A stretch of 64,000 nucleotides of DNA, from the sequence record PP449093.1; one strand, written 5' to 3'. Origin of the DNA: Escherichia coli phage phiS. A program made the translations under genes and the position numbers. The notes under the pieces are model-generated. The model did no database searches. It was not told the origin of the DNA and saw only the letters and a list, made by a program, of their open reading frames with translations. Shown here piece after piece: positions 1-39,026 of this stretch. Positions within the stretch are counted from its first letter, which is position 1; the number at the start of each line of letters is the position of its first letter.

Positions 1-426
1 ATAAAAACGACGATAAAACTATAAACGATGCATCTAACCTTGAGTGGGGAACTAACAGCGAAAACACGAAAGAAGGTTACGAAAACGGATGTTACAAGTT
101 CAAACGTCGATCATATAAGGTTACTGTTATCCATAAGGAAACCGGACAGGAACAGACATTTAAAAGCGTGAGAAGCCTTTCTGAAACATTGGGCTTACAT
201 CGTAAAAATGTATCTGCAATTCTTGATGGTCGGAAAACCAATACTTATGAATACGAGTTCCGCTATGAAATGCCTAACGACTAGCCGTGATGAATGTAGC
301 GGCGTAGGGTCAAGCGATCCGAAATGGTAGACTATCGAAAGATAGAAGATATAGTCTGATCTGCATGGCGACATGCAGCAGCCGAAAGGCGGGGGTAGAG
401 TAGCGACCTACCCTGAACAAATAATG
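1..426 (+). mobile_element. Group I intron, 3' portion, carrying a homing-endonuclease ORF and interrupting nrdD; 5' end lies outside the window
   Basis: After the ORF stop at 284 come GNRA-loop hairpins (ctatcGAAAgatag, ctgcatgGCGAcatgcag) and an S-element-like AAGATATAGTCT paired with upstream GACTAT (P7-like). The region ends in G just before the nrdD reading frame resumes. T4 nrdD is known to contain a group I intron. Confidence 0.55.
3..284 (+). CDS. Intron-encoded homing endonuclease, C-terminal fragment (start upstream of window)
   Basis: Open frame from the window edge to TAG at 282-284. The translation ...FKSVRSLSETLGLHRKNVSAILDGRKTNTYEYEF resembles the helix-turn-helix DNA-binding tail of GIY-YIG/HNH homing endonucleases. 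Confidence 0.45.
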   Translation, partial: KNDDKTINDASNLEWGTNSENTKEGYENGCYKFKRRSYKVTVIHKETGQEQTFKSVRSLSETLGLHRKNVSAILDGRKTNTYEYEFRYEMPND

Positions 427-1419
427 TGTAGAAGTTTCTTAGGTGTGTGGCATAATGAGAAAGGCGAGGAAGTATTAGACGGACGTAATAACTTAGGTGT
501 TGTGACTCTGAATCTTCCGCGTATTGCCCTTATTGCCGCTCGTCGTGCTGGTAAAGCGTCTGTAATGCGCAGAATTGAGCTATTCGAACAAGAGCTAGCT
601 AATCGTATGCCTATTTGCTTTGATGCTCTCATGAGTCGCGTAGACGCTTTAAAAGGCGCTAAAGCCAATGTTGCTCCGGTGCTGTATACAGAAGGTGCAT
701 TTTTCCGTATTCATCAAAACGATGAAATTTTGGAAGTGTTGAAAGATGGTCGCGCTAGTATCTCTCTTGGATATATTGGTTTACATGAGGTATTGAGCGT
801 CCTGTTTGGTGTTCATCCGTTTGATTCGGAAGATGCGCAGCGATACGGTAAACATATTCTTAAGATCTTGCGTCATTATACTGAAAAATGGAAGGATGAA
901 ACCGGACTTGGGTTTAGTCTTTACGGTACGCCAGCCGAGAGCCTTTGCTATCGATTTAATCGACTGGACCGAGAGCAATTTGGTATTGTTAAGGGTGCTA
1001 CCGATAAAGACTGGTACACCAACTCATTCCACCTTGACGTAGACCGGAAAGTCACACCATTTGAGAAAATCGACTTTGAGAAAGATTATCACTGGCTGGC
1101 GTCCGGTGGCATGATCTCTTATGTTGAGTTCCCAGACATGAAAAACAACCTGAAAGGGCTTGAAACTGTAGTAGACTATGCAATGGATAAATTGCACTAC
1201 TTCGGTGTTAATACTCCTTCTGATGTATGTCATGTATGCGGATCTACTAAGGAAATGAGAGCGACCGAGTCTGGCTTTGTTTGTCCTGATTGCGGCAATG
1301 ACAATCTGGAAAAGATGAATGTTATCCGTCGCGTTAGTGGATATCTTGGATCTGTTGATCTGCGTCCATTTAACCACGGGAAACACTCCGAGATGGTAAA
1401 CCGCGTTAAGCATATGTAA
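427..1419 (+). CDS. nrdD: Anaerobic ribonucleoside-triphosphate reductase NrdD, exon 2 (C-terminal part)
   Basis: Glycine-radical motif RVSGYLG near the C-terminus and a Zn-ribbon CHVCGSTKEM...CPDCG. Position is upstream of nrdG as in T4. The 5' boundary is an inferred splice site; the track ORF 373..1419 begins inside the intron. Confidence 0.85.
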   Translation, partial: CRSFLGVWHNEKGEEVLDGRNNLGVVTLNLPRIALIAARRAGKASVMRRIELFEQELANRMPICFDALMSRVDALKGAKANVAPVLYTEGAFFRIHQNDEILEVLKDGRASISLGYIGLHEVLSVLFGVHPFDSEDAQRYGKHILKILRHYTEKWKDETGLGFSLYGTPAESLCYRFNRLDREQFGIVKGATDKDWYTNSFHLDVDRKVTPFEKIDFEKDYHWLASGGMISYVEFPDMKNNLKGLETVVDYAMDKLHYFGVNTPSDVCHVCGSTKEMRATESGFVCPDCGNDNLEKMNVIRRVSGYLGSVDLRPFNHGKHSEMVNRVKHM

Positions 1420-1424
1420 TTTTC

Positions 1425-1451
1425 AGCCGATCCGAAAGGGTCGGCTTTTTC
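1425..1451 (+). terminator. Intrinsic terminator after nrdD
   Basis: Hairpin agccga-tccgaaaggg-tcggct followed by TTTTT. Confidence 0.6.
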
Positions 1452-1462
1452 GTTTTGGGGTG

Positions 1463-1490
1463 TTGACAACATGATTAGCTAATGTATAAT
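1463..1490 (+). promoter_or_regulatory. Sigma70-like early promoter (TTGACA, 16-nt spacer, TATAAT), followed by a conserved CATCGAAAACAA leader
   Basis: TTGACA at 1463-1468 and TATAAT at 1485-1490. The leader acatcgaaaacaacgagagga recurs at three other sites. Confidence 0.55.
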
Positions 1491-1519
1491 GCTCACATCG
1501 AAAACAACGAGAGGACAAC

Positions 1520-1705
1520 ATGATGATGTTTTGTGTACTGAACAAAGAAGTTAAACTTCGTAAACTGGAAATTGGCGATGGTGTTGTTGTTAAAATGCAC
1601 GCTAGCACATTGACTAGTTTTAATTTAAAGGAAAGTTTTTTATTAGAGGAACGGTGGTTAATATCTGCTGGAGTAAAGGCGAAGGAATCCGTAGCTTTTG
1701 CGTAA
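1520..1705 (+). CDS. Hypothetical protein (61 aa)
   Basis: ORF with RBS GAGAGG just downstream of the promoter. It overlaps the next ORF in another frame. Confidence 0.3.
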   Translation: MMMFCVLNKEVKLRKLEIGDGVVVKMHASTLTSFNLKESFLLEERWLISAGVKAKESVAFA

Positions 1706-2058
1706 TTGACGATGATAATAACCTGTATGTGATTCGCTATCATAATAATTCTGTATTGGTCTATACCGACAATTCACGAGAATTATATACTCTTGAATTT
1801 GTTAAGCGTACTGATTGCGACCGATTTGTTCGTGCTTATGAAGAAGATGGCTGTTTTGCGACTGAAACAGAAACAAATGAATATGTTCCTATGGAAGTAG
1901 GGGCAGAAATTAAACACAAGATCACGGATCGTATTTTTAAGGTTGTGGCGGTTGCTCATACTCAATTTGTAGCGCAAGCGCCGGATGAAGAATTTATTAT
2001 CTACAATATTGGTAATGCAAGTTCTCATTTTCATAATGTACTATATCGCGACCTTTGA
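1654..2058 (+). CDS. Hypothetical protein (134 aa)
   Basis: ORF from the track. Its start is unclear (non-ATG at 1654), so it may be joined to 1520..1705 by a frameshift. Confidence 0.4.
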   Translation: MVNICWSKGEGIRSFCVIDDDNNLYVIRYHNNSVLVYTDNSRELYTLEFVKRTDCDRFVRAYEEDGCFATETETNEYVPMEVGAEIKHKITDRIFKVVAVAHTQFVAQAPDEEFIIYNIGNASSHFHNVLYRDL

Positions 2059-2075
2059 TAATGTGTGAGGTGAAT

Positions 2076-2603
2076 ATGAAATCATTAAACCGTAAGCGTA
2101 AAGCACAACGACACAAAGAACGAGCTAAAAAGATTGCTATTGAACTGGTTGAGCGTGAGGATAGCTATTTGTCTACGGGTCGTTTGTATACATTCCATGC
2201 ATTGATTGATGGTAAGCCAGTGTTGCATAATCATGATTGTTTGGCACTCTTTCACGAAATCAAACCAATTCATCGTGAATGGGATGACAACAAAGCAAAA
2301 GGTCAATATTTCCTTACTTGTTCGTGTGGTCATGCTGGATGTGCTGGATATTGGGAACCTGTTACTATCCGTGAGAAAAATGATACCATTCAATGGGTCG
2401 CCCGTACCCGCGATGGTTATGATAAAGGTGCTGATGGTACTGGAGATAACGTAGTTTACTTTAATCGTGATTGGTATTATATGGCGCGATGTATGATCCT
2501 GTTTTATCTTGACTCGATGCCGTATGAATATTTCAGTTTCCAGAATGGGACCGAACTGACAGGGAAGGAATGGTCTGACTACATTCGAAAAAATTTAAAA
2601 TAA
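2076..2603 (+). CDS. Hypothetical Cys/His-rich protein (175 aa)
   Basis: ATG at 2076 preceded by GAGGTG. Contains CSCGHAGCAG and a basic N-terminus. Confidence 0.55.
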   Translation: MKSLNRKRKAQRHKERAKKIAIELVEREDSYLSTGRLYTFHALIDGKPVLHNHDCLALFHEIKPIHREWDDNKAKGQYFLTCSCGHAGCAGYWEPVTIREKNDTIQWVARTRDGYDKGADGTGDNVVYFNRDWYYMARCMILFYLDSMPYEYFSFQNGTELTGKEWSDYIRKNLK

Positions 2604-2607
2604 ATGC

Positions 2608-2636
2608 TTGACGGGGATCGCGAGATCCCCTATACT
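2608..2636 (+). promoter_or_regulatory. Early promoter with stem-loop in the spacer (TTGACG ... TATACT)
   Basis: TTGACG, then the 17-nt spacer ggggatcgcgagatcccc forming a hairpin, then TATACT. Confidence 0.5.
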
Positions 2637-2678
2637 ATATTCATCAAGACGAGATACAACTTTACAGGAGAATCAAAT

Positions 2679-2831
2679 ATGTGGACTTTACTGATTTGGG
2701 AAACTGAAAACGCACAAGTAGAAATCCGTGAATACGAATACCTAAGCCCAGCTTATCTATTAGCATCTCGCGGTGGTTACTATAAAGCGCAGATTGTAAA
2801 CGAGTTCGGGGTAATTGAATATGAGTTCTGA
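2679..2831 (+). CDS. Hypothetical small protein (50 aa)
   Basis: ATG at 2679 after RBS AGGAG. It overlaps the nrdG start. Confidence 0.35.
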   Translation: MWTLLIWETENAQVEIREYEYLSPAYLLASRGGYYKAQIVNEFGVIEYEF

Positions 2832-3324
2832 TACATACGGCAAACTACGCTATGCCGATATTAAAGATTGTGATATGGTTAACGGTGAGGGAGTGAGAGT
2901 CTCCCTTTACGTTACCGGATGTTCACACGCATGTGATGGTTGCTTTAATGCTAGCCTACTCAATCCTAAGAACGGGGAACCATTCACCGATGATACAATG
3001 GGATTGATTCTGGATCTGCTTAGACCTGATTTTATTCAGGGGCTAACATTCTTAGGTGGCGATCCACTGTATAAACGCAATTTAAAGGGTGTACAGCGGA
3101 TCATCGATGAAGTAAAATCATGGATGCCAAATAAAGATATTTGGCTATGGTCTGGTTATACCCTTGACCAATTGAATGATGAGCAAAGAAAAATTGTAGA
3201 ATCAGTTGACATGTTCATCGATGGGCGTTATATTAAAGATATGCCAACGAAGAAGCCGTGGCGGGGGTCTGACAATCAAGTACAATACAAGATTGTTAAT
3301 AGTATTCCAGTGAAAATTATTTGA
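2815..3324 (+). CDS. nrdG: Anaerobic ribonucleotide reductase activating protein NrdG (radical SAM)
   Basis: CxxxCxxC cluster GCSHACDGC, then KDIWLWSGY and IDGRYIKDMPTKKPWRGSDNQ, matching T4 NrdG as I recall it. Adjacent to nrdD. Confidence 0.85.
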   Translation: MNMSSDTYGKLRYADIKDCDMVNGEGVRVSLYVTGCSHACDGCFNASLLNPKNGEPFTDDTMGLILDLLRPDFIQGLTFLGGDPLYKRNLKGVQRIIDEVKSWMPNKDIWLWSGYTLDQLNDEQRKIVESVDMFIDGRYIKDMPTKKPWRGSDNQVQYKIVNSIPVKII

Positions 3325-3334
3325 GGTGATTATT

Positions 3335-3859
3335 ATGGAATGGGAAGTTGGTAAAACTTACAAGATTGAATGCGAAGCGTCGAAAGCCGAACTGACTAAA
3401 TTTTCGTCGTCTATTAACAGATGTATTGTTGACTTGTTGGCTGGTCGCCCGTTTAGGGTAGAAGACCTTGACGATGATGGTGATGTTAGAGAAATTACTA
3501 TTATTGGTAGTAATTTCGACTCTATGACGTTAAAAGAATCCCCTATTGGCTGTTCCGGTGTGTGGTTTTGGTCGGGTGAGCGTCGTTTCTTTACCGAAGT
3601 TACTATTGAACCTAAGATTCCAGATTCGGAAGAAAAAGAAGACCTAACTTTAGAACGCCTGGGTCTGCTTATGGAAGCCTACGACATTCAGTTGATCGAT
3701 AAGATGGGGTTACATAATAGCATTGCCAAAATTACTACCCTAGAAGGTATTAAGAGCGTACTGGATGGTATGCCTAGCCGGATCGGTGCTATCCGAGAAT
3801 ACAAACAAACGCGCGACCGTATGATCCAATTAGAATCACGTATCAAAAATGAGAGATGA
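3335..3859 (+). CDS. Paralog family member 1 (WExGKTY ... RRFFxEV domain), function unknown
   Basis: Starts MEWEVGKTYKIE and contains WFWSGERRFFTEV. RBS GAGGTGA. Shares its domain with the next three genes. Confidence 0.65.
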   Translation: MEWEVGKTYKIECEASKAELTKFSSSINRCIVDLLAGRPFRVEDLDDDGDVREITIIGSNFDSMTLKESPIGCSGVWFWSGERRFFTEVTIEPKIPDSEEKEDLTLERLGLLMEAYDIQLIDKMGLHNSIAKITTLEGIKSVLDGMPSRIGAIREYKQTRDRMIQLESRIKNER

Positions 3860-3863
3860 TATT

Positions 3864-4328
3864 ATGAAATGGGAAGCTGGTAAGACCTATGCGTGGAAAG
3901 ATGTAAAAGATGCAAACCAATTTTTTAAATGGTATGATGTTGATTATTTGAAATATCTGCGATTACCGTTTAAAGTTGCGTCGGTTGATGCGAAAAAAGG
4001 ATACGTGCGGTCTGTTTATCTTCATGATGGAACTTATATGAGTTCAACCGATGTAGGTCTATCTTGTTGGTTTCTGGATCATGACCGTAGCAGATTTGAA
4101 GAAATTATTATTCCAGAAGAATCTAAATTAATTGATCTTCTCAAGTTGGCGATGGATAATTATAAAATCCGCTTTGAATGCAAATCACATGCGGCTATCG
4201 GTGCTAACGCCTTGCGTCATATCTCCAGTTTTGAAGAGTTGAAAGATTTTCTTGACAAAATGCCGGAAAGGGTGCAAGCTATACAGGAAGCAGAGAAAGC
4301 ATTAAACGAACTTGATAAAATCGGTTAA
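3864..4328 (+). CDS. Paralog family member 2
   Basis: Starts MKWEAGKTYAWKD and contains CWFLDHDRSRFEEI. C-terminal helical tail FLDKMPERVQ. Confidence 0.65.
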   Translation: MKWEAGKTYAWKDVKDANQFFKWYDVDYLKYLRLPFKVASVDAKKGYVRSVYLHDGTYMSSTDVGLSCWFLDHDRSRFEEIIIPEESKLIDLLKLAMDNYKIRFECKSHAAIGANALRHISSFEELKDFLDKMPERVQAIQEAEKALNELDKIG

Positions 4329-4340: not shown

Positions 4341-5165
4341 ATGAAATGGGAAATTGGTAAAACTTACACCTGGAAAGACGAAAACGCTAAAACTGAGTTT
4401 ATTACTAACGGAGAAGGTGTTCTTTCTCCACTTAACAGCGATATTAGTGCAGCTATTGGTGACACGCCATTTACCATCATCGAGATCGATGGCAACGGTT
4501 GGATTAATGCAATAGAGCTAGACGGTGTTTATCATACGGCGAAAACTGCTACAGGAAAAGACATTTGGACTGCAACATATTTCTTTAGTCCATTCGATAG
4601 AAAATTCTTTCGTGAAGTTGAAGAAGTTCCCCAGAAATGGGAAGTTGGTAAAACTTATACTTGGAAAGATGCGAATGCTATGACCGACTTCTGTCATTAT
4701 GCTGAAAACGTATCTAATCTTAATTATGTTATTGCACGAGCAATAAATTATAGACCTTTTACTGTTAAAAATGTTAGTCCATGTGGGCAAATTGATGTAA
4801 TTGAAATTGATGGTAAAGACCATACTCTAATGAGCGCAACCGAAGATAGAGACCATAAAGGAACTAGCTGGTTTATTGATTCTGATAGAAAATTCTTTCG
4901 TGAAGTAGAAGAATTGGAAGTTATAACCACTGATTCTAAAATCGTTGGACAGTTGAAACGTCTGTTTAGTAGTCGTTACGGCCTGACAATGGTTAAATTT
5001 GGCGAAGCAAATGAAGGTAAAACCTTTGAACGTTTCGATGACTTCATTACAGCACTTGACAAGATGGATGAAATCATGCAAGATCGCCAGAAGATTAAAG
5101 ACCTTCAAGAAGACATTAAACGTCGTGAAGTTGAATTTTTGATTGGTAAAGAGCGAGGTTGGTAA
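4341..5165 (+). CDS. Paralog family member 3, carrying two tandem copies of the domain
   Basis: MKWEIGKTYTWKD...FDRKFFREVEEV, then a second copy KWEVGKTYTWKD...SDRKFFREVEEL. Confidence 0.7.
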   Translation: MKWEIGKTYTWKDENAKTEFITNGEGVLSPLNSDISAAIGDTPFTIIEIDGNGWINAIELDGVYHTAKTATGKDIWTATYFFSPFDRKFFREVEEVPQKWEVGKTYTWKDANAMTDFCHYAENVSNLNYVIARAINYRPFTVKNVSPCGQIDVIEIDGKDHTLMSATEDRDHKGTSWFIDSDRKFFREVEELEVITTDSKIVGQLKRLFSSRYGLTMVKFGEANEGKTFERFDDFITALDKMDEIMQDRQKIKDLQEDIKRREVEFLIGKERGW

Positions 5166-5166
5166 T

Positions 5167-5664
5167 ATGTTTGTTGATGGTAATATGTTTGTTGTTGGTA
5201 TGACCTATCAGTGGAAAAACGAGCGAGCGCGGAAAGCCTTTGCAACCAGTGTTGCAAATGATGCAATAGCAGACTTTATCGGTGACCGTACATTTAAAGT
5301 TATCGCTTTTGAAAAAATTGCGTCAGATATCGAATATGTTTCTGCGATTGAAATTGATGGAAAAACATACACCTGTCGAGATGTTGATGATGTACGGGAA
5401 TACGCGCACAACTGGTTTTTGCAATCCGAAGAACGTTATTTTAAAGTGGTGTCGTCAGAACTGACTACTGATGCAATGTTGGAACAATTTTTCAACAACT
5501 ACGAAGTTTCTGTACGTCGCTATGGCGAAGAAGAAGTGTTTAAAATCGATGATTACAATCAGTTTAAACGAGTATTCGCCACTAAGTTACAGCGTGATTT
5601 TGAACGCGAGAATCGAATCAAGGAACTGGAAGAAGAACTAGAAAGATTAAAGGCTGAGAAATGA
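5167..5664 (+). CDS. Paralog family member 4 (divergent)
   Basis: MFVDGNMFVVGMTYQWKNE...NWFLQSEERYFKVV with a coiled-coil tail. The gene starts with an 18-nt near-tandem duplication. Confidence 0.6.
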   Translation: MFVDGNMFVVGMTYQWKNERARKAFATSVANDAIADFIGDRTFKVIAFEKIASDIEYVSAIEIDGKTYTCRDVDDVREYAHNWFLQSEERYFKVVSSELTTDAMLEQFFNNYEVSVRRYGEEEVFKIDDYNQFKRVFATKLQRDFERENRIKELEEELERLKAEK

Positions 5665-28767: not shown

Positions 28768-30158
28768 TGAGCAGAGTATTAACTTTCGATATGTTAACAG
28801 ACGGGCAAAAACATGCTTTTGATGTTCTAATGAAACGCATTGAACAAAAGAAGCATACAACTGTCCGGGGTGCGGCGGGTACTGGTAAAACCGCAATGAT
28901 GAAATTCATTGTTCAGGAAATGGTCCGCCGTGGTGTAACTGGTGTGGTTTTGGCAACGCCTACCCACCAGGCTAAAAAAGTTTTGAGTAAAGCGGTAGGT
29001 CGTCAAGCATTTACTTTACATGCTTTATTGCGTCTTAATCCGACCAACTATGAAGATACTCAAGTATTTGAACAAAAAGATACTCCTAAGCTAGATGATG
29101 TTCAGATCATCATTGTTGATGAAGCGAGTATGGTCGATAAGAAGTTATTTGATATTCTCATGAAGAGTATCAACGGTCGAATTGTTGTTATTGCAGTTGG
29201 CGATCCTCACCAGTTACGACCAGTTGATCCGAGCGGTGCAACGTCAATTTCTCCTTTCTTCACGGATGAAAATTTTCAAAACGTGGAGTTGACAGAAATT
29301 AAACGATCTAATGCACCGATCATTGATGTGGCGACCGCTGTCCGTAACGGTAAATGGGTATTCGAAAAGCAGTGCGGTAACGAGGGTGTATTCCATAGCT
29401 CAACTCTGCCGGAGTTTATGAAGCATTATTTCGAAACCGTTAAAACGCCGGAAGACCTTCTAGAAAACCGTATTCTGGCTTACACTAACAAGAGCGTCGA
29501 AAAACTCAATGAAATTGTGCGTAAGCGCGTTTATAACACCGATGAACCCGTGATTGTAGATGAAATTCTTGTTACTCAGGAACCGTTGATCGAATATCTG
29601 CGAGATGAACGCGGGAAGAAAATTCCCAATGTTATTTTTAACAATGGTGAGATGATCCGGGTTAAAGAGGTTATACCGCGTGAATTTACATTACGTTGCA
29701 CGGGGGTAGATCCGCAACCAGTTTTAGGCTATACTCTGAAAGTGGAAAGCGTCGATGATGACGAAGACAAAGAAATCCTAAATCAGAAAGTCGGTTTAGA
29801 TGCAGTCGGAATCACTACAGATAAACCGGATTTGGTAGAAATCAACATTCTGACAGAACAACGTCAGAAGAACATTTTCTCTATCTATCTGAATACGGTC
29901 GCCGGACAATATCGCGAAATGAAGAAAGAGAATCCAAAATTTAAACCAGATTGGGATTCCTTCTGGACGATGAAGCGTATGTTCTTGAATGTAAAAGCAT
30001 TACCAGCTTGCACCATTCATAAGTCACAAGGGATCAGCGTAGACCGCGTGTTCCTGTATACTCCTTGTATGTGTACAGACAATGTTGACTTTGAATTGGC
30101 AATGCAGTTATTATATGTGGGTGTTACCCGTGCGAGGTATCGAGTAGACTATATTTGA
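28767..30158 (+). CDS. dda: DNA helicase Dda (SF1)
   Basis: GAAGTGKT, VDEASMV, TEIKRSNAPIIDVATAVRNGKW and LYVGVTRARY match T4 Dda as I recall it. Confidence 0.9.
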   Translation: MSRVLTFDMLTDGQKHAFDVLMKRIEQKKHTTVRGAAGTGKTAMMKFIVQEMVRRGVTGVVLATPTHQAKKVLSKAVGRQAFTLHALLRLNPTNYEDTQVFEQKDTPKLDDVQIIIVDEASMVDKKLFDILMKSINGRIVVIAVGDPHQLRPVDPSGATSISPFFTDENFQNVELTEIKRSNAPIIDVATAVRNGKWVFEKQCGNEGVFHSSTLPEFMKHYFETVKTPEDLLENRILAYTNKSVEKLNEIVRKRVYNTDEPVIVDEILVTQEPLIEYLRDERGKKIPNVIFNNGEMIRVKEVIPREFTLRCTGVDPQPVLGYTLKVESVDDDEDKEILNQKVGLDAVGITTDKPDLVEINILTEQRQKNIFSIYLNTVAGQYREMKKENPKFKPDWDSFWTMKRMFLNVKALPACTIHKSQGISVDRVFLYTPCMCTDNVDFELAMQLLYVGVTRARYRVDYI

Positions 30159-30168
30159 GGAAATTATT

Positions 30169-30336
30169 ATGATTATGCGAAGTATCCCAGAATTTAATGA
30201 TGTGACGGTAAGCCGTCACAATGGAACTGTTACCATGTGCTTTAGATGGGGTCTATACGGCTGGAACGTGTCCGGCGATAGTGAAGCTGCATGTATCAAT
30301 AAAATGATCGAGCATTTCACTAAGCGAGGTTTTTGA
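30169..30336 (+). CDS. Hypothetical small protein (55 aa)
   Basis: My own translation; ATG after GAGGAA. Confidence 0.35.
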   Translation: MIMRSIPEFNDVTVSRHNGTVTMCFRWGLYGWNVSGDSEAACINKMIEHFTKRGF

Positions 30337-30337
30337 T

Positions 30338-30580
30338 ATGGTTGTTATTAATGATATGGCTAATGTAATACATCTACAATCAATTGTCGCGTGGAACCGT
30401 CAAAAGATTCATTGTGACTATGCACAACATGTAATGAATTTTAACAACAAAGTACGCGCATACATGGCAACGGACCGACTGTTAACCGATAATTACGGTA
30501 ACGGGATTATTGATTGTAGCGGTTTCATTCTGGATAAAAACGATCTGGATTTGTTCCGGCATATCGCGGAGGATATTTAA
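30338..30580 (+). CDS. Hypothetical protein (80 aa)
   Basis: ORF from the track. Confidence 0.5.
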   Translation: MVVINDMANVIHLQSIVAWNRQKIHCDYAQHVMNFNNKVRAYMATDRLLTDNYGNGIIDCSGFILDKNDLDLFRHIAEDI

Positions 30581-30581
30581 A

Positions 30582-31250
30582 ATGCTTCCAGTGGATTTAA
30601 TGATTGACTTTGAAAGTTTAGGTTATCCGCCTGATGGGGCGGTGATCAATATGGCGGCAATCGGATTTAAAGAAGATCCGCACAATCCACCTACATTTAA
30701 AGAACTGGTTGACAATTCCTTTCTGGTAAAATTTGATATTCCTTCCCAGAAAGGTGTAAGGGTGTTTGATCATGGTGTGGTTGAATGGTGGAAGAATACC
30801 GCCTCAGAAGGCATGAGAAAGCAATTAATCACAAATGGTACGGAAGTATCAACTAAAGAAGGTTTAGCGCGTTTTAACGCATTCTGTGAAGCCGTAGGAG
30901 TAGATCCGGTTAAATCCGTAATGTGGTCACGCGGTAATGCGTTTGATATTCCGTTACTAGTTGATATGATCCGCCGTGCACACAATACACGAGATACGTT
31001 CAGCCTTGAACCTGTGCGATTCTGGAATATCCGAGATGTTCGCACCGCCATTGAGCGTACATTGATGCATCGCGGGATGTGTGAGTGTCCGTTACCAATG
31101 GGTACGCTAGATGGTTTTATCGCACATGATGCGATTCATGATTGCGCTCGCGATATTCTTATGCTAATCTATGCACAACGTTATGCTATGGGTCTGGAAG
31201 ACCTACCAGAAAATCCAGATCCAAATTCAGTTAAGAAACAAAGGGGATAA
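30582..31250 (+). CDS. dexA: Exonuclease A DexA (DnaQ-like 3'-5' exonuclease)
   Basis: DFE..G, WWKN, FWNIRDVRT and CPLPMGTLDGFIAHDAIHDCARDILM match T4 DexA as I recall it. Start moved to ATG 30582. Confidence 0.85.
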   Translation: MLPVDLMIDFESLGYPPDGAVINMAAIGFKEDPHNPPTFKELVDNSFLVKFDIPSQKGVRVFDHGVVEWWKNTASEGMRKQLITNGTEVSTKEGLARFNAFCEAVGVDPVKSVMWSRGNAFDIPLLVDMIRRAHNTRDTFSLEPVRFWNIRDVRTAIERTLMHRGMCECPLPMGTLDGFIAHDAIHDCARDILMLIYAQRYAMGLEDLPENPDPNSVKKQRG

Positions 31251-31251
31251 T

Positions 31252-31425
31252 ATGCCATTATACGATTATTCTTGTGAAGAACACGGTCAATTTCAGAAAA
31301 TCCGCAAAATTTCCGAGCGTGAAAAGGCAGAATGCCCTGAATGCGGTAAAGAATGCAAACAGGGATTGACTGCCCCGCGCGGGATTAATGGCGGGTACTA
31401 TGATAAAAATGTGCGCGTGTCATGA
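31252..31425 (+). CDS. Zinc-ribbon protein (57 aa)
   Basis: CEEHG ... CPECGKEC, two CxxC pairs (FmdB-like). Confidence 0.5.
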   Translation: MPLYDYSCEEHGQFQKIRKISEREKAECPECGKECKQGLTAPRGINGGYYDKNVRVS

Positions 31426-31531
31426 GTCATATACTTGACAATCACTCAATTTTTAATATGATTGTTGCAGCCGTCTTTGTGGCGGTTGCAGTAAGTTATG
31501 GTTATGTTATGAGCAAAATTAAGGTTTAGCT

Positions 31532-32071
31532 ATGGGCGATTTGGAATTATATGAATATCTCCACGAAAGATACTACTACGAAAACGGTAGGCTATTTTTC
31601 AAAAAGGATTTAAAGAATCAGATTAAAGCTGGCGATGAAGCCGGAAACCAATTGACAAAATATGCCGAGGATGGCAGTATCATGTGGAGTCGATGGGTCA
31701 TGAAGGTCAACCGAAAACATTTTTATCGGGCGACCGTTATATGGGTGATGTTTAACAAACAATTACCGCCTAAAGGTTTTGAGGTCGACCATATTGACAG
31801 AAACTCATTAAATGATAAAATAGAAAACCTTCGATTGGTGACTCGAACCAACAACGTAAGAAACCGAGGGAAGATGAGAAAGAATCCTTCGTCAAAATAT
31901 ATTGGCGTTTGTTGGAACAAGTCACATAAGAAATGGGTTGCTAGGATAGGTGGTTATAAGCGCGTATACTTAGGATCATTTAAAGACGAAAAAGAGGCTG
32001 CATTGGCCTATGATAAAGCCGTTAAAGAACTTCATGGAGAATTTGCGGTTTTAAATTTCCCAAATGACTGA
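31532..32071 (+). CDS. HNH homing endonuclease with AP2 domain (copy C)
   Basis: VDHIDRNSLNDKIENLRLVTRTNN, then AP2-like YIGVCWNKSHKKWVARIGG...YLGSFKDEKEAALAYDKAVKELHGEFAVLNF. Confidence 0.8.
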   Translation: MGDLELYEYLHERYYYENGRLFFKKDLKNQIKAGDEAGNQLTKYAEDGSIMWSRWVMKVNRKHFYRATVIWVMFNKQLPPKGFEVDHIDRNSLNDKIENLRLVTRTNNVRNRGKMRKNPSSKYIGVCWNKSHKKWVARIGGYKRVYLGSFKDEKEAALAYDKAVKELHGEFAVLNFPND

Positions 32072-32088
32072 TAAATGAGGAAAATATT

Positions 32089-33912
32089 ATGACAGATTTT
32101 TTGATCCTTTCAGATAGGGAACATGTGATTCGCAGACCTCATATGTACGTGGGGAGCACAACGTATGAGGCTCAAAAACGCTTTTTGTTTGGTAAATGGC
32201 AGTCTGTATCATACGTTCCCGGACTAGTTAAAATCATTGATGAGATCATCGACAACTCTGTAGACGAGGCGATTCGCACTAATTTTGAATTTGCCAATGT
32301 GATTAGCGTCGATATCCAAAACAATATTGTTACGGTAACAGACAACGGTCGCGGTATTCCTCAACATATGGTTACTACACCAGAGGGCACGCAGATTCCG
32401 CAACCTGTAGCCGCATGGACACGAACAAAAGCAGGGTCTAACTTTGATGATACCAATCGATTAACGCAAGGGATGAACGGTGTTGGGTCGTCGTTGTCAA
32501 ATTTCTTTAGCGATTGGTTTACTGGTGTGACCTGTGACGGTGAAACAGAAATGACCGTTCAATGCACAAACGGTGCTGAAAATATCACATGGTCATCAAA
32601 ACCATCAAAATTGAAGGGAACGAAGGTTACATTTTGTCCAGACTTCGACCACTTCGAAGGTTATATGATGGACAACTCTGTTTTAGATATTGTTCATGAT
32701 CGTCTGCAATCATTGAGCGTAATCTTTCCTAAGATCACGTTTAAGTTTAATGGTAAACGTATTGTTAGTAAGTTCAAGGATTATGCTAAACTATACAATG
32801 ATGATCCGTTTGTCATTGAAGATAAAAACTTCTCACTTGCCCTAGTTCCTGCGGTCGAGGGAGAAGGTTTTAAATCAGTATCCTTTGCTAATGGTCTGTT
32901 TACCAAAAACGGGGGAACACACGTAGACTACGTGACAGATGATCTTTGTGAAGAGATTGTAAAACGAATCAAGAAAGAATATAAGGTTGATGTTACTAAA
33001 GCTGCGGTTAAGTCTGGATTGACCTGTATTCTTATTGTTCGTGAATTGCCAAACCTCCGTTTTGATTCACAGACAAAAGAACGATTGACTAATCCAACTG
33101 GTGATATCAAGCGTCATATTGATCTTGATTTTAAAAAGCTGGCTAAAGTCATTGCGAAGAAAGAAAACATTATCATGCCTATTATTGCTGTAGTCCTGGC
33201 ACGCAAAGAGGCAGCAGATAAAGCGGCAGCGACTAAGGCAGCAAAGGCAGCAAAACGGGCTAAGGTAGCAAAACACGTTAAAGCTAACCTTATTGGAACT
33301 GACGCAGAAACTACCCTGTTTTTGACGGAAGGTGATTCCGCGATCAACTATCTGATCTCTGTACGTGATCAAGATTTACATGGAGGTTTCCCGTTGCGAG
33401 GCAAAACTCTTACAACGTGGGAACAACCGGAGGCAAAGATCGTTAAGAACGCCGAAATTTTTAACATCATGGCGATCACTGGCTTGCAATTTGGTGTTGA
33501 TGCATTGGAAGTTATGCAATACAAAAATATTGCGATTATGACCGACGCTGATACTGACGGGATCGGGTCTATTAAACCTAGTCTGATCTCTTTCTTTGCA
33601 CGTTGGCCTGAATTGTTCGAAGATGGACGAATCCGGTTTATCAAAACACCTATTATCATTGCTGAACCAAAGAAAGGTGATGATGTTCGATGGTATTATG
33701 ACCTAGAAGAGTTCGAGAACGACCGAGATAATATCAAAGGTTACAACATTCGATATATCAAAGGTTTAGCATCGCTCACAGAATCAGACTATCATCGCGT
33801 GATCAACGATCCTGTCATGGAGATCATCACGTTACCGGAAAACTATAAAGAGCTATTCGATTTGCTCTATAGTGAAGATGCAGATCAGCGCAAAATTTGG
33901 ATGCAATCATAA
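32089..33912 (+). CDS. 39: DNA topoisomerase II large subunit (GyrB-like), 39 and 60 fused in one ORF
   Basis: GHKL ATPase motifs (IDNSVDE, DNGRGIP, GMNGVGSS) and a C-terminal toprim region (TEGDSA, IMTDADTDG) in one 607-aa frame. Confidence 0.9.
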   Translation: MTDFLILSDREHVIRRPHMYVGSTTYEAQKRFLFGKWQSVSYVPGLVKIIDEIIDNSVDEAIRTNFEFANVISVDIQNNIVTVTDNGRGIPQHMVTTPEGTQIPQPVAAWTRTKAGSNFDDTNRLTQGMNGVGSSLSNFFSDWFTGVTCDGETEMTVQCTNGAENITWSSKPSKLKGTKVTFCPDFDHFEGYMMDNSVLDIVHDRLQSLSVIFPKITFKFNGKRIVSKFKDYAKLYNDDPFVIEDKNFSLALVPAVEGEGFKSVSFANGLFTKNGGTHVDYVTDDLCEEIVKRIKKEYKVDVTKAAVKSGLTCILIVRELPNLRFDSQTKERLTNPTGDIKRHIDLDFKKLAKVIAKKENIIMPIIAVVLARKEAADKAAATKAAKAAKRAKVAKHVKANLIGTDAETTLFLTEGDSAINYLISVRDQDLHGGFPLRGKTLTTWEQPEAKIVKNAEIFNIMAITGLQFGVDALEVMQYKNIAIMTDADTDGIGSIKPSLISFFARWPELFEDGRIRFIKTPIIIAEPKKGDDVRWYYDLEEFENDRDNIKGYNIRYIKGLASLTESDYHRVINDPVMEIITLPENYKELFDLLYSEDADQRKIWMQS

Positions 33913-33915
33913 CAC

Positions 33916-33963
33916 TTGACATACAAGGGAGATTCTCTATAATGGGAGTCTCCCTTTTCTTTT
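33916..33963 (+). promoter_or_regulatory. Promoter-stem-loop cassette: TTGACA, TATAAT inside a hairpin loop, then a T-run (terminator-like)
   Basis: cttgacatacaa-gggagattc-tctataatgg-gagtctccc-ttttctttt; the 9-bp stem encloses the -10. Confidence 0.5.
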
Positions 33964-33977
33964 ATGAGGATTTAATA

Positions 33978-34277
33978 ATGAGCAAAAAGAATAACATGAT
34001 GATGAGTATGGCAAAGTTCATGGAAGCAGACCTGATCAAAAATACAGTACAGCATGAACGCCAGCGCGAAGCCGCAGTGATTGCAGAACAAGGTTTTCAG
34101 GTTATCCGCAATCCACCTAAAGACACGGTTAAATCGAAATACAGAGACGATCTGAAAGACCATGAAGTACGGGAACTGGTTAATGATCTGCGTGACATTG
34201 CCATCAAATATCATGGTTATCAGTGCTTACGAGAACTGATCGCAGAGCGAGTAATGGACGCACTGAAAAAAGATTAA
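33978..34277 (+). CDS. Hypothetical protein (99 aa)
   Basis: ATG after GAGGA. Confidence 0.5.
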   Translation: MSKKNNMMMSMAKFMEADLIKNTVQHERQREAAVIAEQGFQVIRNPPKDTVKSKYRDDLKDHEVRELVNDLRDIAIKYHGYQCLRELIAERVMDALKKD

Positions 34278-34284
34278 AAATCTG

Positions 34285-34313
34285 TTGACACTGGATCGGG
34301 GATATATCATAAT
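34285..34313 (+). promoter_or_regulatory. Early promoter with hairpin spanning the -10 (TTGACA ... CATAAT)
   Basis: ttgaca-ctggatc-ggggatatatcataatgtcccc. Confidence 0.45.
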
Positions 34314-34343
34314 GTCCCCATCAAAAACAAAAGGTTGACTTAT

Positions 34344-34538
34344 ATGAAACCGTTTAAGAATGAAGAAACTCAAAAATTTTGTGAAAAAATTGCAGAAATC
34401 TACTTGACAGGGGATAAGGAAAAAGCTAATATTATGTTCAAAGAGTCGGTTTCCATGATGAAAGTAGCACGCTGGGAACTGATCGCAATGCAAGACCAAA
34501 TTCGTTATCTAGTAACAAAGGAGAATCAAAATGCGTAA
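34344..34538 (+). CDS. Hypothetical protein (64 aa)
   Basis: ORF from the track; its 3' end overlaps the start of the interrupted ORF. Confidence 0.4.
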   Translation: MKPFKNEETQKFCEKIAEIYLTGDKEKANIMFKESVSMMKVARWELIAMQDQIRYLVTKENQNA

Positions 34539-34725
34539 CCATTACATCTAACTGGCAAGCCGTAAAGTTTCAGACCTGAAAGGCGTAATTGCTTACTATG
34601 AAGAAGTCCTGAAAAACAAAATTGCTGATTGGGAACGTAAAGAATACAGCAAGTGCTTAGAGAAAAGCCGCGCTGAACTGGTTGACGCAGAAGCCCATCT
34701 GCAATGGGTGATTGAAAATGTATAA
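34531..34725 (+). pseudogene. ORF with strong RBS interrupted by an in-frame TAA at codon 7 (pseudogene or recoding candidate)
   Basis: AAGGAGA, then ATG CGT AAC CAT TAC ATC TAA, then 57 open codons (LASRKVSDLKGVIAYYEEV...QWVIENV) ending just before the next gene's RBS. Confidence 0.3.
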
Positions 34726-34735
34726 GGAGTAGAAA

Positions 34736-34993
34736 ATGAATAGAAGTTTTGATTTTATGTTCGCCAAGTATCATCGAGACAAGAAATCGATGGACCTGTT
34801 TATGAAATGTCTGAGGTATGAATATGCGCACCTTCGTAAACACAAAATTGACCCGCAAGTTTCCTACGAAAACATCAAGAAATATGCGAAAGAAGTGATT
34901 GACAACGATTGCACCGTGACATATAATGCGTTTATTGATTTATGGGCGTGGGATGTAATCTACGCAGAGATGGACAAAGAAGATTTTAATTAA
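34736..34993 (+). CDS. Hypothetical protein (85 aa)
   Basis: RBS AAGGAG. Confidence 0.5.
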   Translation: MNRSFDFMFAKYHRDKKSMDLFMKCLRYEYAHLRKHKIDPQVSYENIKKYAKEVIDNDCTVTYNAFIDLWAWDVIYAEMDKEDFN

Positions 34994-35007
34994 GTGAGGA
35001 TTATATT

Positions 35008-37116
35008 ATGAAAATGCATATTGATAATGAAGAAGTATTTGGTAGTGACCTGAGCGGTGCGGTTGATTTTTCACTGAAAGCAAGTAGCAAGGCTTTTATG
35101 GTGCTTTCTAAGAATACCTATCAATATTGTGAGCGTGCTTGCGTCCGTGAATATTCATGTAATGCTACCGACACTCACAAAGAAGCCGGAACCTTAGACC
35201 GTCCGTTTGATATTCATTTACCGACTGCAATCGAACCGTATTTTTCTGTGCGTGATTATGGTACTGGTATTCCGTCTAAGAAAGAATTAGAACAACTGTT
35301 TACGGTTTACTTTGAATCAACAAAAGACCAGACTAATGACTATATCGGATCTTTTGGTTTAGGTGCGAAGTCTGCGTATAGCTATACCGACACCTTTACA
35401 ATCGTAAACTATTACAATGGTCGCGCTTATGGCTTTACAGCATTTGTGCAAAACTCTATGCCGAAAATGGTGCAGATTTTCGACGAACCGACCTATGAAG
35501 ACAATGGTCTGAAAATCACTATTCCGGTGAAAGAAAAAGACATTCAGACATGGCATCGAGAAGCGCAATTTGTACTGCGTCATTTTGGGGAACACAAACC
35601 TAATATCAATGCAATCGAAATTAATTATTTCCCTAGCTTTGATAATTATTATGTGTGTAATGGGCGTGATAACGATTCCTATGTAGTATATGCAATCATG
35701 GGTAAGATTCAGTATCCGATCCCGTATGAATATGTTCGCGGAACATGGTTAGAAGCTGTAAACCGCCAGCACCAGACCATTTACATTAATTTTGAGTTGG
35801 GTGATCTGGACCTGATGCCATCGCGTGAAGAAGTTCACTTGTCAATTGAGACTAAAGCGAACATCGAAAAACGTATTGCAGAAATCAATGAAATGATGTT
35901 GGAAAAGGTCAAAGAGAAGATCGCCAACATTAAAACAGAGCGTAAACTTGCGCAATTTATGAGCGAGTATTCATCGACTCAACGCAATATTATTAGCAAG
36001 ATGGGTAAGATCGGACAATGGGATGATCCGGTAGCAATCTATAATAAGTTTGTGAATGCGGGTAAAGATTCGCCTAATGACGTAGAAGGTCAGGTGTATA
36101 CTCTGTATCGTACTCGTCACACAATCAGTAAATTGCGCCCTGCTTTCGTTAGAAGTCAATACAACATTACGCATTTTGTATGGATGCATAAAGAAGATAT
36201 TCTGTGTGTAATTGATGATACCGATAAACCGAAACTGCGTGCACTGACTCTTAACGGCATGGTCCAGGAATACGGAATCAATAAAAAGGTACTTGTGTTC
36301 CGTCAGCGCAACGAAAAACATATGGAGACTTTCGAGTACATCAAACAGTATTATGATGATTCTGAAATGACCGTGATTAAAGTGTCTGAGGCCGATGATC
36401 TGCGTGCTAAAGCAGTTAAACCGGAGAAGACCGAGCGTACACAACATGAAGCGACTCCTAAGCTGCCTAACGTGTATATCATGGAAAAGATTGGTGACAG
36501 TTGGCATAAAACCAGCCATCACATGAAAGCGGCAGAGATTCGCGAGTTATCAGGCTTGCACATGTTCCGCGTAGGTGATGCATTCGAAAGCCGTAGTCGT
36601 AAATCGATCCATAGTGAAAATACATTACACACGGCGCTTGACTACTTCGGGGTAACAAAGTATATTATTACCCGTAACGAGACACAAAAATATCTCGTTG
36701 ACGAACAATTGGAATGTGCGCTAGAATTTGTTCGCGGTAAGCTGGCTGGTCTGGCTAAGAAGGTTAAGACCAATCATCTGGGGTATGGCGAATATCTGGG
36801 TGTGATCACTATGTTGTTTCATGACGATGAACTAGAACGCTGTGTTCCAGAATTTATTGACAGACTGTACGGTCGTCATTATAATAAAGAGGTTTCCAAG
36901 TTACTCCTTCGCACCCGTTGGATTATGGACGAAGAAACTAAAAAGATTTGTGATGAAAAATTCACGGCAGCAAACGAACGAATTAAAGCAGTTTGTGCGA
37001 AGTTTAAAGAGAATAGCCCGTTACTGTATGATATTGTAGATAACTGGTATCGTATTCTGCATAACGACAAACGCGCACAAGACTTTATGAAACTGGTTAA
37101 GAATGTTAAATTTTAA
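35008..37116 (+). CDS. rIIA: rIIA protein (GHKL-ATPase-like)
   Basis: 702 aa with DYGTGIP and GSFGLGAKS motifs; sits between 39 and rIIB as in T4. Confidence 0.85.
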   Translation: MKMHIDNEEVFGSDLSGAVDFSLKASSKAFMVLSKNTYQYCERACVREYSCNATDTHKEAGTLDRPFDIHLPTAIEPYFSVRDYGTGIPSKKELEQLFTVYFESTKDQTNDYIGSFGLGAKSAYSYTDTFTIVNYYNGRAYGFTAFVQNSMPKMVQIFDEPTYEDNGLKITIPVKEKDIQTWHREAQFVLRHFGEHKPNINAIEINYFPSFDNYYVCNGRDNDSYVVYAIMGKIQYPIPYEYVRGTWLEAVNRQHQTIYINFELGDLDLMPSREEVHLSIETKANIEKRIAEINEMMLEKVKEKIANIKTERKLAQFMSEYSSTQRNIISKMGKIGQWDDPVAIYNKFVNAGKDSPNDVEGQVYTLYRTRHTISKLRPAFVRSQYNITHFVWMHKEDILCVIDDTDKPKLRALTLNGMVQEYGINKKVLVFRQRNEKHMETFEYIKQYYDDSEMTVIKVSEADDLRAKAVKPEKTERTQHEATPKLPNVYIMEKIGDSWHKTSHHMKAAEIRELSGLHMFRVGDAFESRSRKSIHSENTLHTALDYFGVTKYIITRNETQKYLVDEQLECALEFVRGKLAGLAKKVKTNHLGYGEYLGVITMLFHDDELERCVPEFIDRLYGRHYNKEVSKLLLRTRWIMDEETKKICDEKFTAANERIKAVCAKFKENSPLLYDIVDNWYRILHNDKRAQDFMKLVKNVKF

Positions 37117-39025: not shown

Positions 39026-39026
39026 A

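Follow-up and report, generated by a model that had tools for sequence, protein, structure and literature searches.

Evidence for a td-like mobile group I intron with an I-HmuI-type endonuclease ORF at the catalytic cysteine codon of nrdD in Escherichia coli phage phiS

The td and nrdB introns of phage T4 are proven self-splicing introns. In the classification of Michel and Westhof, subgroup IA is defined by two hairpins, P7.1 and P7.2, located between P7 and the 3' strand of P3. I-HmuI, encoded by the DNA polymerase intron of phage SPO1, nicks one DNA strand. Endonuclease insertions and split nrdD genes have been described (PMC3728262, PMC4837284), and for the Felixounavirus counterpart of the present locus a split nrdD was described, the interruption being a homing-endonuclease gene (PMC4837284). 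Felix O1 was reported to be without introns (PMC3185647), and the intron of gene 43 is the sole JSE intron mentioned by Petrov et al. 2010 (PMC2993671). Dozens of phage records from several genera show nrdD as a pair of genes with a "homing endonuclease" or "hypothetical protein" in between. No description of the nrdD element at the Gly/Cys290 site as an intron was found in the searchable papers.

The window analysed here is a stretch of 64,000 nt of Escherichia coli phage phiS (PP449093.1), an RB49/JSE-like coliphage (Krischvirus). Positions 1-426 (plus strand) very probably represent the 3'-terminal 426 nt of a td-like mobile group I intron of about 760 nt, subgroup IA, in the phage nrdD gene. 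The subgroup was assigned from the presence of P7.1 and P7.2 and the absence of P2. A sequence-only reading of this stretch had proposed a group I intron with a homing-endonuclease ORF interrupting nrdD; this was borne out by a covarying fold, a match to PF22083 and the start of exon 2 at 427. Feature coordinates are collected in Table 1. A slash in a sequence or position pair marks an intron boundary; in hairpin entries it separates the two strands.

Table 1. Coordinates of the intron, its RNA elements, the endonuclease ORF and the downstream exon in the window
Feature	Position	Strand	Evidence or remark
Intron, 3' part	1-426	+	97.1% identity of 1-1500 to JSE; alignment to RB49 and ELT3 (no intron) starts at 427
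I-HmuI-type HNH homing-endonuclease ORF, 3' part, 93 codons plus TAG	3-284	+	Open frame; Pfam and PHROG matches
P6 3' strand (GC)	272-273	+	Partner outside the window; pair invariant in 6 full-length homologues, so consistent with the fold, untested by covariation
P7 5' strand (C278, G279-A283)	278-283	+	Pairs with 352-356 and G358; G279 is the G of the guanosine-binding site
P7.1 hairpin, GCCG/CGGC stem, conserved 12-nt loop UGAUGAAUGUAG	284-303	+	Both sides changed in 3/4 pairs (7 sequences) and 4/4 (103)
P7.2 hairpin GGGUC/GAUCC	307-320	+	Compensatory changes
P3 3' strand GGUAG	326-330	+	Partner CUGCC in the missing 5' half; pseudoknot with P7
P8 hairpin CUAUC-GAAA-GAUAG	332-345	+	Pairing 100%, 4/5 pairs compensatory (7 sequences)
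J8/7 AAGAUA, conserved core joiner	346-351	+	Aligned to the RF00028 consensus AAGAUAUAGUC, posterior '*'
P7 3' strand (UAGUC, U357 bulged, G358)	352-358	+	Pairing 100% in 7 sequences
P9 hairpin CUGCAUG-GCGA-CAUGCAG	361-378	+	Pairing 100%, 3 pairs compensatory (7 sequences)
P9.1 hairpin GCC-GAAA-GGC	381-390	+	Covariation in the 7- and 103-sequence sets
P9.2 hairpin GGGGUAG/CUACCCU, 9-nt loop	392-414	+	100% paired; compensatory in 4/7 pairs (7 sequences) and 7/7 (103)
3' tail with terminal guanosine G426	415-426	+	3' splice site 426/427
Co-conversion tract (probable)	427-441	+	5 synonymous differences in 15 nt relative to intron-less Krischvirus alleles
nrdD exon 2, 330 codons plus stop	427-1419	+	PF13597 NRDD E=2e-91; Gly_radical

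The boundaries were read from intron-less and intron-bearing alleles. In RB49 and ELT3, whose nrdD carries no intron, the alignment runs to ...CCGATGGGT and resumes at the TGT at window position 427; the uninterrupted site in RB49 reads ...CCGATGGGTTGTCGTAGCTTC.... JSE (NC_012740; EpJSE_00057-00059) shares genus, insertion site and endonuclease with the window phage and is 97.1% identical over window positions 1-1500. Between the same two alignment points it has 760 extra nt (L001 3167-3926), the last 426 of which are matched by the window at 97%. The borders of the JSE insertion are ...GGGU/ and G/UGU. In 6/6 same-site introns the preceding base was U and the final base G, with TGT or TGC directly after it. 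In the window this final G, which had been picked out as lying just before the exon, is G426, followed by T427, the base at which intron-less alleles resume. The window is preceded by about 334 nt of intron (L001 3167-3500 in JSE), comprising P1, the 5' strand of P3, P4, P5, the 5' strand of P6 and the beginning of the endonuclease ORF. The sequence-only reading had likewise placed the catalytic 5' half and exon 1 outside the window, and the JSE copy supplies P1, P3, P4, P5 and P6.

The intron separates the Gly codon from the Cys codon in the conserved motif SPMG/CRSFL; in RB49 numbering it falls at NrdD residues 290/291. The first codon of exon 2, TGT at 427, corresponds to Cys290 of T4 NrdD, the catalytic cysteine (query residue 1 was aligned to residue 290, PDB 1H78).

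Frame 3 of the window is open over 3-284 and closes with TAG at 282-284, as had been read from the sequence together with a DNA-binding tail. The tail matched PF22083, the I-HmuI NUMOD-like DNA-binding domain, over window residues 42-86 (E=2.6e-8; 33.7 bits, cut-off 27). Matches were also obtained to the second half of HNH_3 and to PHROG 59, HNH endonuclease (E=1.4e-15; full JSE protein E=9e-38). Only the second half of the HNH catalytic motif is present (...NLEWGTNSEN), the window edge splitting the codon of the catalytic His: window bases 1-2 are the 'AT' of this CAT. The complete endonuclease has 166 residues. The JSE protein contains the full HNH motif (HNH_3 E=1.2e-4, slightly under the Pfam cut-off) and was aligned end to end with I-HmuI (PDB 1U3E; E=4.6e-9, 156/173 residues). 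This alignment reaches the C-terminus, where, in agreement with PF22083, a NUMOD-like helix-turn-helix DNA-binding domain is located. The last endonuclease codons, Asn-Asp-stop, overlap the 5' strand of P7 (278-283), and ...YEMPND* is the C-terminus of most same-site endonucleases.

Pairing within the 3' domain was 96.9% in a set of seven sequences and 95.3% in a set of 103, compared with 30-42% in shifted controls (30-39% for the smaller set). Changes on both sides of a pair were found for 18/37 pairs in the smaller set and for 35/37 in the larger. P7 and P6 are invariant among the seven closest sequences and hence have no independent support in that set; over the 103 sequences P7 was paired at 96.6%, its G-C pair being present in 103/103. 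Of all helices P9.1 is the weakest, owing to its varying length among homologues. P1-P6 are known only from JSE and other relatives, the 5' half lying outside the window. The full-length homologues add P1, P3 (as a pseudoknot), P4, P5 and P6, at 95.4% paired. P3 was 100% paired in six full-length homologues, with 3/5 pairs changed on both sides. In P1, exon GAUGGGU pairs with intron GCUCAUC, with U.G at the 5' splice site, in JSE and four other same-site introns, and exon base -7 covaries with the internal guide sequence. The conserved group I core is present in the P7 G-C pair, J8/7 (constant in homologues save for its first base), P8 and the P3-P7 pseudoknot. A homology-free minimum-energy fold of 268-426 recovered five of the six hairpins (z=-3.1; 1/200 shuffles as good). 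A covariance model of the 3' domain gave a single match in the window, at 268-424 with 182 bits, the window being among its seven training sequences. Together these features exceed chance expectation by a wide margin.

The 3' stretch had been described as about 140 nt dense in GNRA-capped hairpins. The 142 nt at 285-426 contain three of these (P8, GAAA; P9, GCGA; P9.1, GAAA) and three further hairpins. The pairing originally proposed for P7 has to be replaced. GACTAT at 330-335, taken as the P7 partner, forms J3/8 and the 5' strand of P8, and the true partner is CGACUA at 278-283. The GACTAT pairing forms in 71% of cells, shows no compensatory change and performed no better than shuffles. The sole exact copy of AAGATATAGTC in the 64 kb is at 346-356; near-matches at 13358, 26027 and 52924 were discarded as chance occurrences, with no structural-model match at these positions. 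A promoter-like match at 328-355 was likewise discarded, being merely P8/J8/7 sequence.

Screening with the Rfam group I model had been suggested as a check. RF00028 matched the window at 173-378 with 26.8 bits (E=1e-4), short of its gathering threshold (50 bits), at which the whole window gave no match. The full-length JSE intron scored 27.4 bits. The T4 controls gave 40.3 bits for td, no match for nrdB and 105.3 bits for sunY, whose core is uninterrupted. From the score of td and the missed nrdB it follows that RF00028 loses introns with an ORF in P6. The check therefore yielded a sub-threshold match only, and the absence of a hit, proposed as grounds for refutation, proved misleading, td and nrdB failing in the same way. 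After these controls the lack of a match at gathering was no longer taken as evidence against the intron, and the objection from the low score was weakened. Default Rfam screening overlooks introns with an ORF in P6, T4 td and nrdB included.

A decayed element, in which splicing has been lost, nrdD is a pseudogene and the endonuclease gene is a selfish remnant, was considered very unlikely. The 5' half lies outside the window, the intron is rare in its genus (of 61 matching records, that of JSE alone has it) and exact matches were absent from IMG/VR and JGI metagenomes; the anaerobic ribonucleotide reductase may also be dispensable in laboratory conditions. Such decay is opposed by the pattern of change relative to JSE. 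Over the 426 nt common to both there are 18 substitutions, and the ribozyme differences number three: 309 in P7.2 (G.U to A-U), 376 in P9 (G-C to G.U) and one loop base, so that every substitution in the 3' domain keeps pairing or sits in a loop. Of the codon differences in the ORF, 12 are synonymous and one is non-synonymous. Purifying selection acts on both the endonuclease ORF and the ribozyme RNA. The P7 G-C pair, J8/7 and the terminal G are all retained, and exon 2 is intact, with 97-98% identity to intron-less alleles.

Boundaries, fold and covariation, endonuclease family, purifying selection, insertion site and exon patch are directly supported. Splicing and homing of the phiS intron, and the intactness of its own 5' half, are what we infer. 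The ribozyme would form within the primary nrdD transcript and bind an external guanosine at G279-C356 of P7. This guanosine would attack the 5' splice site, on the 3' side of the U in the P1 U.G pair. G426 would then take the place of the guanosine and exon 1 would attack the 426/427 bond, giving a ligated nrdD mRNA predicted to encode ...SPMG-CRSFL.... In mixed infection the endonuclease would cut or nick intron-less nrdD alleles, and repair would give the recipient the intron together with a few bases of adjacent exon.

The locus could instead be an intron-less gene in pieces, in which a free-standing endonuclease gene sits in nrdD and the two halves are translated separately and reassembled, as in nrdA/mobE of Aeromonas phage Aeh1 (PMC3653736). 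GenBank presents it in this form: the records of JSE, nieznany, Mushroom and others contain two nrdD CDSs and an endonuclease gene ('Homing endonuclease' in JSE) with no intron feature. In JSE and the window the insertion moreover ends in an AUG in frame with exon 2. This AUG is not conserved, being AAG in Mushroom and Sl26, and it is not preceded by a Shine-Dalgarno sequence (...CCCUGAACAAAUAAUG). Since the Felixounavirus intron ends in AAG, there is no start codon before the Cys codon; the annotated downstream CDS begins 27 codons later and lacks the catalytic Cys. An unspliced downstream piece would thus miss this residue, and the AAG end and the Cys-less CDS together imply that splicing is needed. 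Separate translation is also opposed by the complete covarying group I fold flanking the ORF on both sides (P7-P9.2 in the window, P1-P6 in JSE) and by the exact U/ and G/ boundaries. It was judged very unlikely, and a group I intron was retained as the reading of the locus.

Introns at the same site were found in Felixounavirus (Mushroom, Sl26, UAB_Phi87), Phapecoctavirus (nieznany), Vequintavirus (EPFV3) and Vibrio phage F101. They share the identical insertion point, ATGGGT/...G/TGY, the fold and the endonuclease family, but their endonucleases are 48-54% identical to that of JSE and their 3' domains 76-80% identical. P7.2, P8, P9.1 and P9.2 differ among them by compensatory changes. The first bases of exon 2 probably record an intron transfer. 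Positions 427-441 form a probable co-conversion tract; the Vequintavirus EPFV3, which carries the intron, has exactly this sequence in exon 2. The five synonymous differences from intron-less alleles are at 430, 432, 435, 439 and 441, and their clustering has a binomial P of ~2e-6 (against RB49) or ~3e-7 (against ELT3). In JSE the patch is shorter, with three donor-type bases (+4, +6, +9), compared with five in the window, out to +15.

Recovery of the upstream half was attempted with the exact exon-2 protein, which retrieved only a 4.7-kb Logan contig whose first base lies about 108 nt before the terminal AUG; the longer read-through ORF was absent from the records. A 41-nt pattern specific to JSE and the window had no exact match in IMG/VR, and a 36-nt version had none in JGI metagenomes. 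The searches did not return the upstream half, and the 5' half of the phiS intron is therefore deduced from JSE only.

A wider interpretation, to which about even weight was given, is that the Gly/Cys290 site carries an undescribed intron lineage spreading horizontally through at least five phage genera of different families or subfamilies. The patch in the window would then be the footprint of cross-family homing into Krischvirus, and any one RNA would be either translated through the ORF or spliced, never both. Such exclusivity, the last codons being a strand of P7, would explain the conserved ...YEMPND* tail.

The value of the finding lies mostly in annotation and phage evolution. Recognising the intron restores one functional NrdD that includes the catalytic cysteine, and the exon patch would be a small trace left by an intron moving between unrelated phage groups. 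The locus is a further case in which a mobile intron targets an essential-type enzyme at its most conserved catalytic codon.

The sequence-only reading had also equated the element with the T4 nrdD (sunY) intron. The host gene and the broad intron class are the same, and the 3'-domain model matches sunY at 127 bits because T4-type IA introns share a core. Insertion site, endonuclease family and ORF position all differ. The sunY site is about 110 codons upstream, near residue 181 (break at 180/182 in RB49 numbering), compared with 290/291 in phiS. The sunY intron encodes the GIY-YIG endonuclease I-TevII, whereas that of phiS encodes an I-HmuI-type HNH protein. The T4 ORF follows the catalytic core, after P9.x (P7-P9.2 domain at L006 5764-5621, I-TevII start at 5613), whereas the phiS ORF precedes this domain and overlaps its start, as in T4 td and nrdB. 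Orthology with sunY was ruled out by site mapping and ORF position and has practically no probability left; td is the closer relative (149 compared with 127 bits, with a full-length blastn alignment).

The nrdB intron of T4 (I-TevIII; 108 bits with the same model) resembles the phiS intron in having a ribonucleotide reductase gene as host and an HNH-class ORF upstream of, and overlapping, P7-P9.2. Its host is a different gene, that of the class Ia small subunit, and no similarity between the phiS/JSE endonuclease and the T4 I-TevIII remnant was detectable on comparison. I-HmuI is similar to the endonuclease over nearly its full length, including the HNH and C-terminal helix-turn-helix (NUMOD-like) regions, at low sequence identity; host gene, phage and target site are different. 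The closest likeness is to T4 td (I-TevI), whose core is likewise of subgroup IA, including P7.1 and P7.2, and whose ORF is looped out of P6 and runs as far as P7. The stop codon of the phiS ORF lies inside the 5' strand of P7, and in td and nrdB the model matches extend over the end of the ORF in the same manner. AAAUGCCUAACGACUA is identical in td and phiS, and the 3' 157 nt were aligned over their full length at about 70% identity (blastn). The two differ in host gene (td), in endonuclease (GIY-YIG in td, HNH here) and in the P2 hairpin, found in td only. The phiS intron is real, but it is an ordinary kind of mobile element, and its mechanism is not new.

Positions 1-1500 of the window were 97.1% identical to Escherichia phage JSE (Krischvirus) in a database sequence search. 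In 59 other records, mostly RB49-like phages, the match began only at 427 or 442. Positions 30000-50000 were 95-97% identical to various Krischvirus genomes. The boundary was defined by alignment of JSE, RB49, ELT3 and the window. Intron-less nrdD reads ...CCGATGGGT TGTCGT... at the site, and JSE carries 760 additional nt between GGGT and TGT (3167-3926 of its sequence, L001). The window holds the last 426 of this insertion, so the 5' half and first exon lie outside it, as the sequence-only reading had stated. From the same alignment, the insertion is preceded by U and terminated by G. It falls between G290 and C291 of RB49 NrdD (motif SPMG/CRSFL). The first residue of exon 2 aligned to Cys290 of T4 NrdD (PDB 1H78), which is the active-site cysteine at the finger-loop tip, beside the glycyl radical. 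The hairpin-dense tail of about 140 nt, ending in G before the exon, was also recovered.

Features of the intron 3' end and of nrdD exon 2, in window coordinates
Feature	Coordinates	Remarks
P7	278-283 with 352-358	U357 bulged
P7.1	284-303	
Hairpin-rich non-coding stretch	285-426	142 nt, final base G; between both reading frames
P7.2	307-320	
P3 3' strand	326-330	partner outside window
P8	332-345	GAAA loop
J8/7	346-351	
P9	361-378	GCGA loop
P9.1	381-390	GAAA loop
P9.2	392-414	
Terminal G	426	
NrdD C-terminal 330 residues	427-1419	PF13597, E=2e-91, plus glycyl-radical domain

The 3' domain was aligned across seven sequences (the window, JSE, four other introns at the same nrdD position and T4 td), which aligned well. 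In these, 96.9% of cells were paired and 18 of 37 pairs showed two-sided change. Structures shifted by 1-3 columns paired 30-39% of cells, and 0/500 shuffles attained the observed values. A covariance model of P7-P9.2 (R1), with the window among its seven training sequences, gave a single match in the window (268-424, 182 bits). It gave 102 further matches in IMG/VR loci, retrieved with the 14-mer GAAGATATAGTCTG. Across the resulting 103 sequences, whose alignment is biased towards the structure because it was fitted to R1, 95.3% of cells were paired, with compensatory change in 35 of 37 pairs; the P7 G-C pair was invariant.

Composite sequences with the ORF removed were built for six full-length introns. 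These added P1, P3, P4, P5 and P6, with 95.4% paired overall. In P1, exon GAUGGGU pairs with intron GCUCAUC, leaving U.G at the splice site, and exon base -7 covaries with the guide sequence. In P3, CUGCC pairs with GGUAG as a pseudoknot across P7 (compensatory change in 3/5 pairs). P2 was not present, the P1-P3 gap being just 6 nt. The 12-nt loop of P7.1, UGAUGAAUGUAG, was identical in all same-site nrdD introns and the stem beneath it covaries; the T4 td hairpin at this place is short and different. Such conservation suggests a tertiary contact or a protein-binding role.

The sequence-only reading had given GACTAT (330-335) as the P7 partner. This is wrong: the AAGAUAUAGUC strand pairs with CGACUA (278-283). 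The look-alike arises because P8 in the window happens to start CUAUC. Pairing through GACTAT accounted for 71% of cells with 0 compensatory changes, indistinguishable from shuffles.

In the Rfam group I check there was no match in the window at the gathering threshold; permissive settings returned RF00028 at 173-378 (26.8 bits, E=1e-4), the well-aligned portion being GAAGAUAUAGUCUGAUCUG...CAG. The full-length JSE intron scored 27.4 bits, no improvement on the window. A score this low is expected of an intron with an ORF inside P6. The T4 sunY, td and nrdB introns, all classic self-splicing introns, were used as controls. The sunY intron, with its uninterrupted core, scored 105 bits and td 40.3 bits, the latter under threshold; nrdB gave no Rfam match. 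The element is a group I intron, for which the structural evidence is stronger than the Rfam score.

Positions 3-284 (frame 3) read open through 93 codons up to a TAG stop at 282-284. The window begins within this ORF, its edge splitting the catalytic His codon. The fragment matched PF22083 (I-HmuI NUMOD-like DNA-binding domain) over the Pfam cut-off (E=2.6e-8), in agreement with the homing-endonuclease DNA-binding tail proposed earlier. It also matched the second half of the HNH_3 nuclease motif and PHROG 59 (HNH endonuclease). The full JSE protein, which probably starts at MELRK... (166 residues, preceded by AAGAGGA), aligned nearly end to end with I-HmuI (PDB 1U3E, E=4.6e-9). Boundaries, covarying fold and endonuclease profile matches together uphold a group I intron with an endonuclease ORF interrupting nrdD.

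The final codons, GAA AUG CCU AAC GAC UAG, contain the P6 3' strand and the P7 5' strand, and the ...YEMPND-stop C-terminus occurs in 4/5 lineages. From this overlap we infer that a ribosome completing the ORF would unfold P7; I-TevI in td has the same arrangement. Upstream of the window, at 3246-3280 of the JSE sequence, a 14-bp hairpin (z=-2.3) is predicted to mask the Shine-Dalgarno sequence of the endonuclease gene, AAGAGGA, an arrangement similar to that by which translation of the T4 intron endonucleases is controlled.

The intron ends in AUG (424-426), which is in the reading frame of exon 2, and for this reason ORF finders run the exon back into the ribozyme (ORF 373-1419). The second 'nrdD' CDS of JSE in GenBank (L001 3924-4919) begins at this AUG. 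GenBank annotations imply a gene in pieces expressed without splicing, like Aeh1 nrdA/mobE (PMC3653736). This is unlikely, since the ORF is flanked by ribozyme on both sides and the AUG lacks a Shine-Dalgarno sequence. Felixounavirus, moreover, has AAG in its place, and the downstream CDS annotated there begins 27 codons late, without the catalytic Cys. The terminal-AUG start is an annotation artefact and no real start.

The window and JSE ORFs differ at 13 codons, 12 of them synonymous, so the endonuclease gene is under purifying selection. Within 285-426 there were three differences: position 309 (G.U/A-U in P7.2), 376 (G-C/G.U in P9) and 400 (a base in the P9.2 loop), all compatible with the fold. 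This selection pattern speaks against a decayed, non-splicing relic, a reading left room by the 5' half being outside the window.

Exon 2 (993 nt) differed at 19 positions from intron-less RB49 and at 15 from ELT3. Five differences, 5/5 synonymous, fall within the first 15 nt (TGT AGA AGT TTC TTA vs intron-less TGT CGT AGC TTC CTG; binomial P ~2e-6 vs RB49, ~3e-7 vs ELT3). These 15 nt are identical to the Vequintavirus allele, and JSE has 3/5 of the changes (+4, +6, +9). The patch is probably a co-conversion tract from intron entry into a Krischvirus. P10 pairing is a possible contributor; in Mushroom, exon UGUAGAG reads as fully complementary to CUCUAUA adjoining the guide sequence.

Introns with the same nrdD position, fold and endonuclease family were found in Phapecoctavirus (nieznany), Vequintavirus (EPFV3), Felixounavirus (Mushroom, Sl26) and Vibrio phage F101, with endonucleases 48-54% identical to that of JSE. 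In Krischvirus the intron is rare (JSE only among 61 matching records). Searches of IMG/VR and of JGI metagenomes for exact copies of a pattern specific to JSE and the window found none; an identical exon 2 protein occurred in one Logan contig. In a higher-GC viral contig (L014, IMG/VR 3300035521_000439, 1610-4024), nrdD is interrupted at the same Gly/Cys site with a second R1 match further upstream, and probably contains two introns. Five other IMG/VR viral contigs (L087, L028, L027, L077 and L023) have 3-4 matches to the 3' domain model in a span of a few kb, pointing to genes with several related introns each.

Directly 3' of nrdD, a strong intrinsic-terminator-like hairpin (AGCCGATCCGAAAGGGTCGGCT plus T run, 1425-1446) precedes a perfect sigma-70 promoter (1463-1490; TTGACA-16-TATAAT, 12/12 matches). 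A second early-type promoter at 2608-2636 (TTGACG-17-TATACT) holds a perfect GC-rich stem-loop, GGGGATCGCGAGATCCCC, in its spacer. Promoter/stem-loop cassettes are reported as shuffling modules in RB49-type phages (PMC2839356), and the 2608-2636 element may resemble them. Downstream of nrdG, four consecutive ORFs (3326-3859, 3849-4328, 4341-5165 and 5143-5664) have in common an N-terminal W-E/K-x-GKTY-x-W/I-K-D motif, present twice in the third, and a C-terminal coiled-coil-like tail. They look like a tandem paralogous family.

T4-type group I introns with homing endonucleases are a class long known, and JSE already provides a near-identical copy in the databases, under a split-gene annotation. 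The Felixounavirus counterpart has been described as a homing-endonuclease gene that breaks up nrdD and has 53% identity to that of JSE (PMC4837284), and the sole JSE intron mentioned by Petrov et al. (PMC2993671) is in gene 43. No description of the nrdD Gly/Cys element as an intron was found in the literature searchable here. The match to the T4 nrdD (sunY) intron proposed in the sequence-only reading did not hold, as insertion site, endonuclease type and ORF position all differ. T4 nrdD is broken near residue 181 (RB49 numbering), whereas the phiS intron lies at 290/291; the T4 intron encodes the GIY-YIG enzyme I-TevII, whereas the phiS ORF is of HNH type. In the nrdD introns of T4 and the T4-like phage IME537, the P7-P9.2 domain is immediately upstream of the endonuclease ORF. 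The window has the order found in T4 td and nrdB, with the ORF first and its end running into the start of this domain. By sequence the closest T4 relative is td, with ~70% identity over the full 157 nt, an R1 score of 149 bits and AAAUGCCUAACGACUA in common verbatim.
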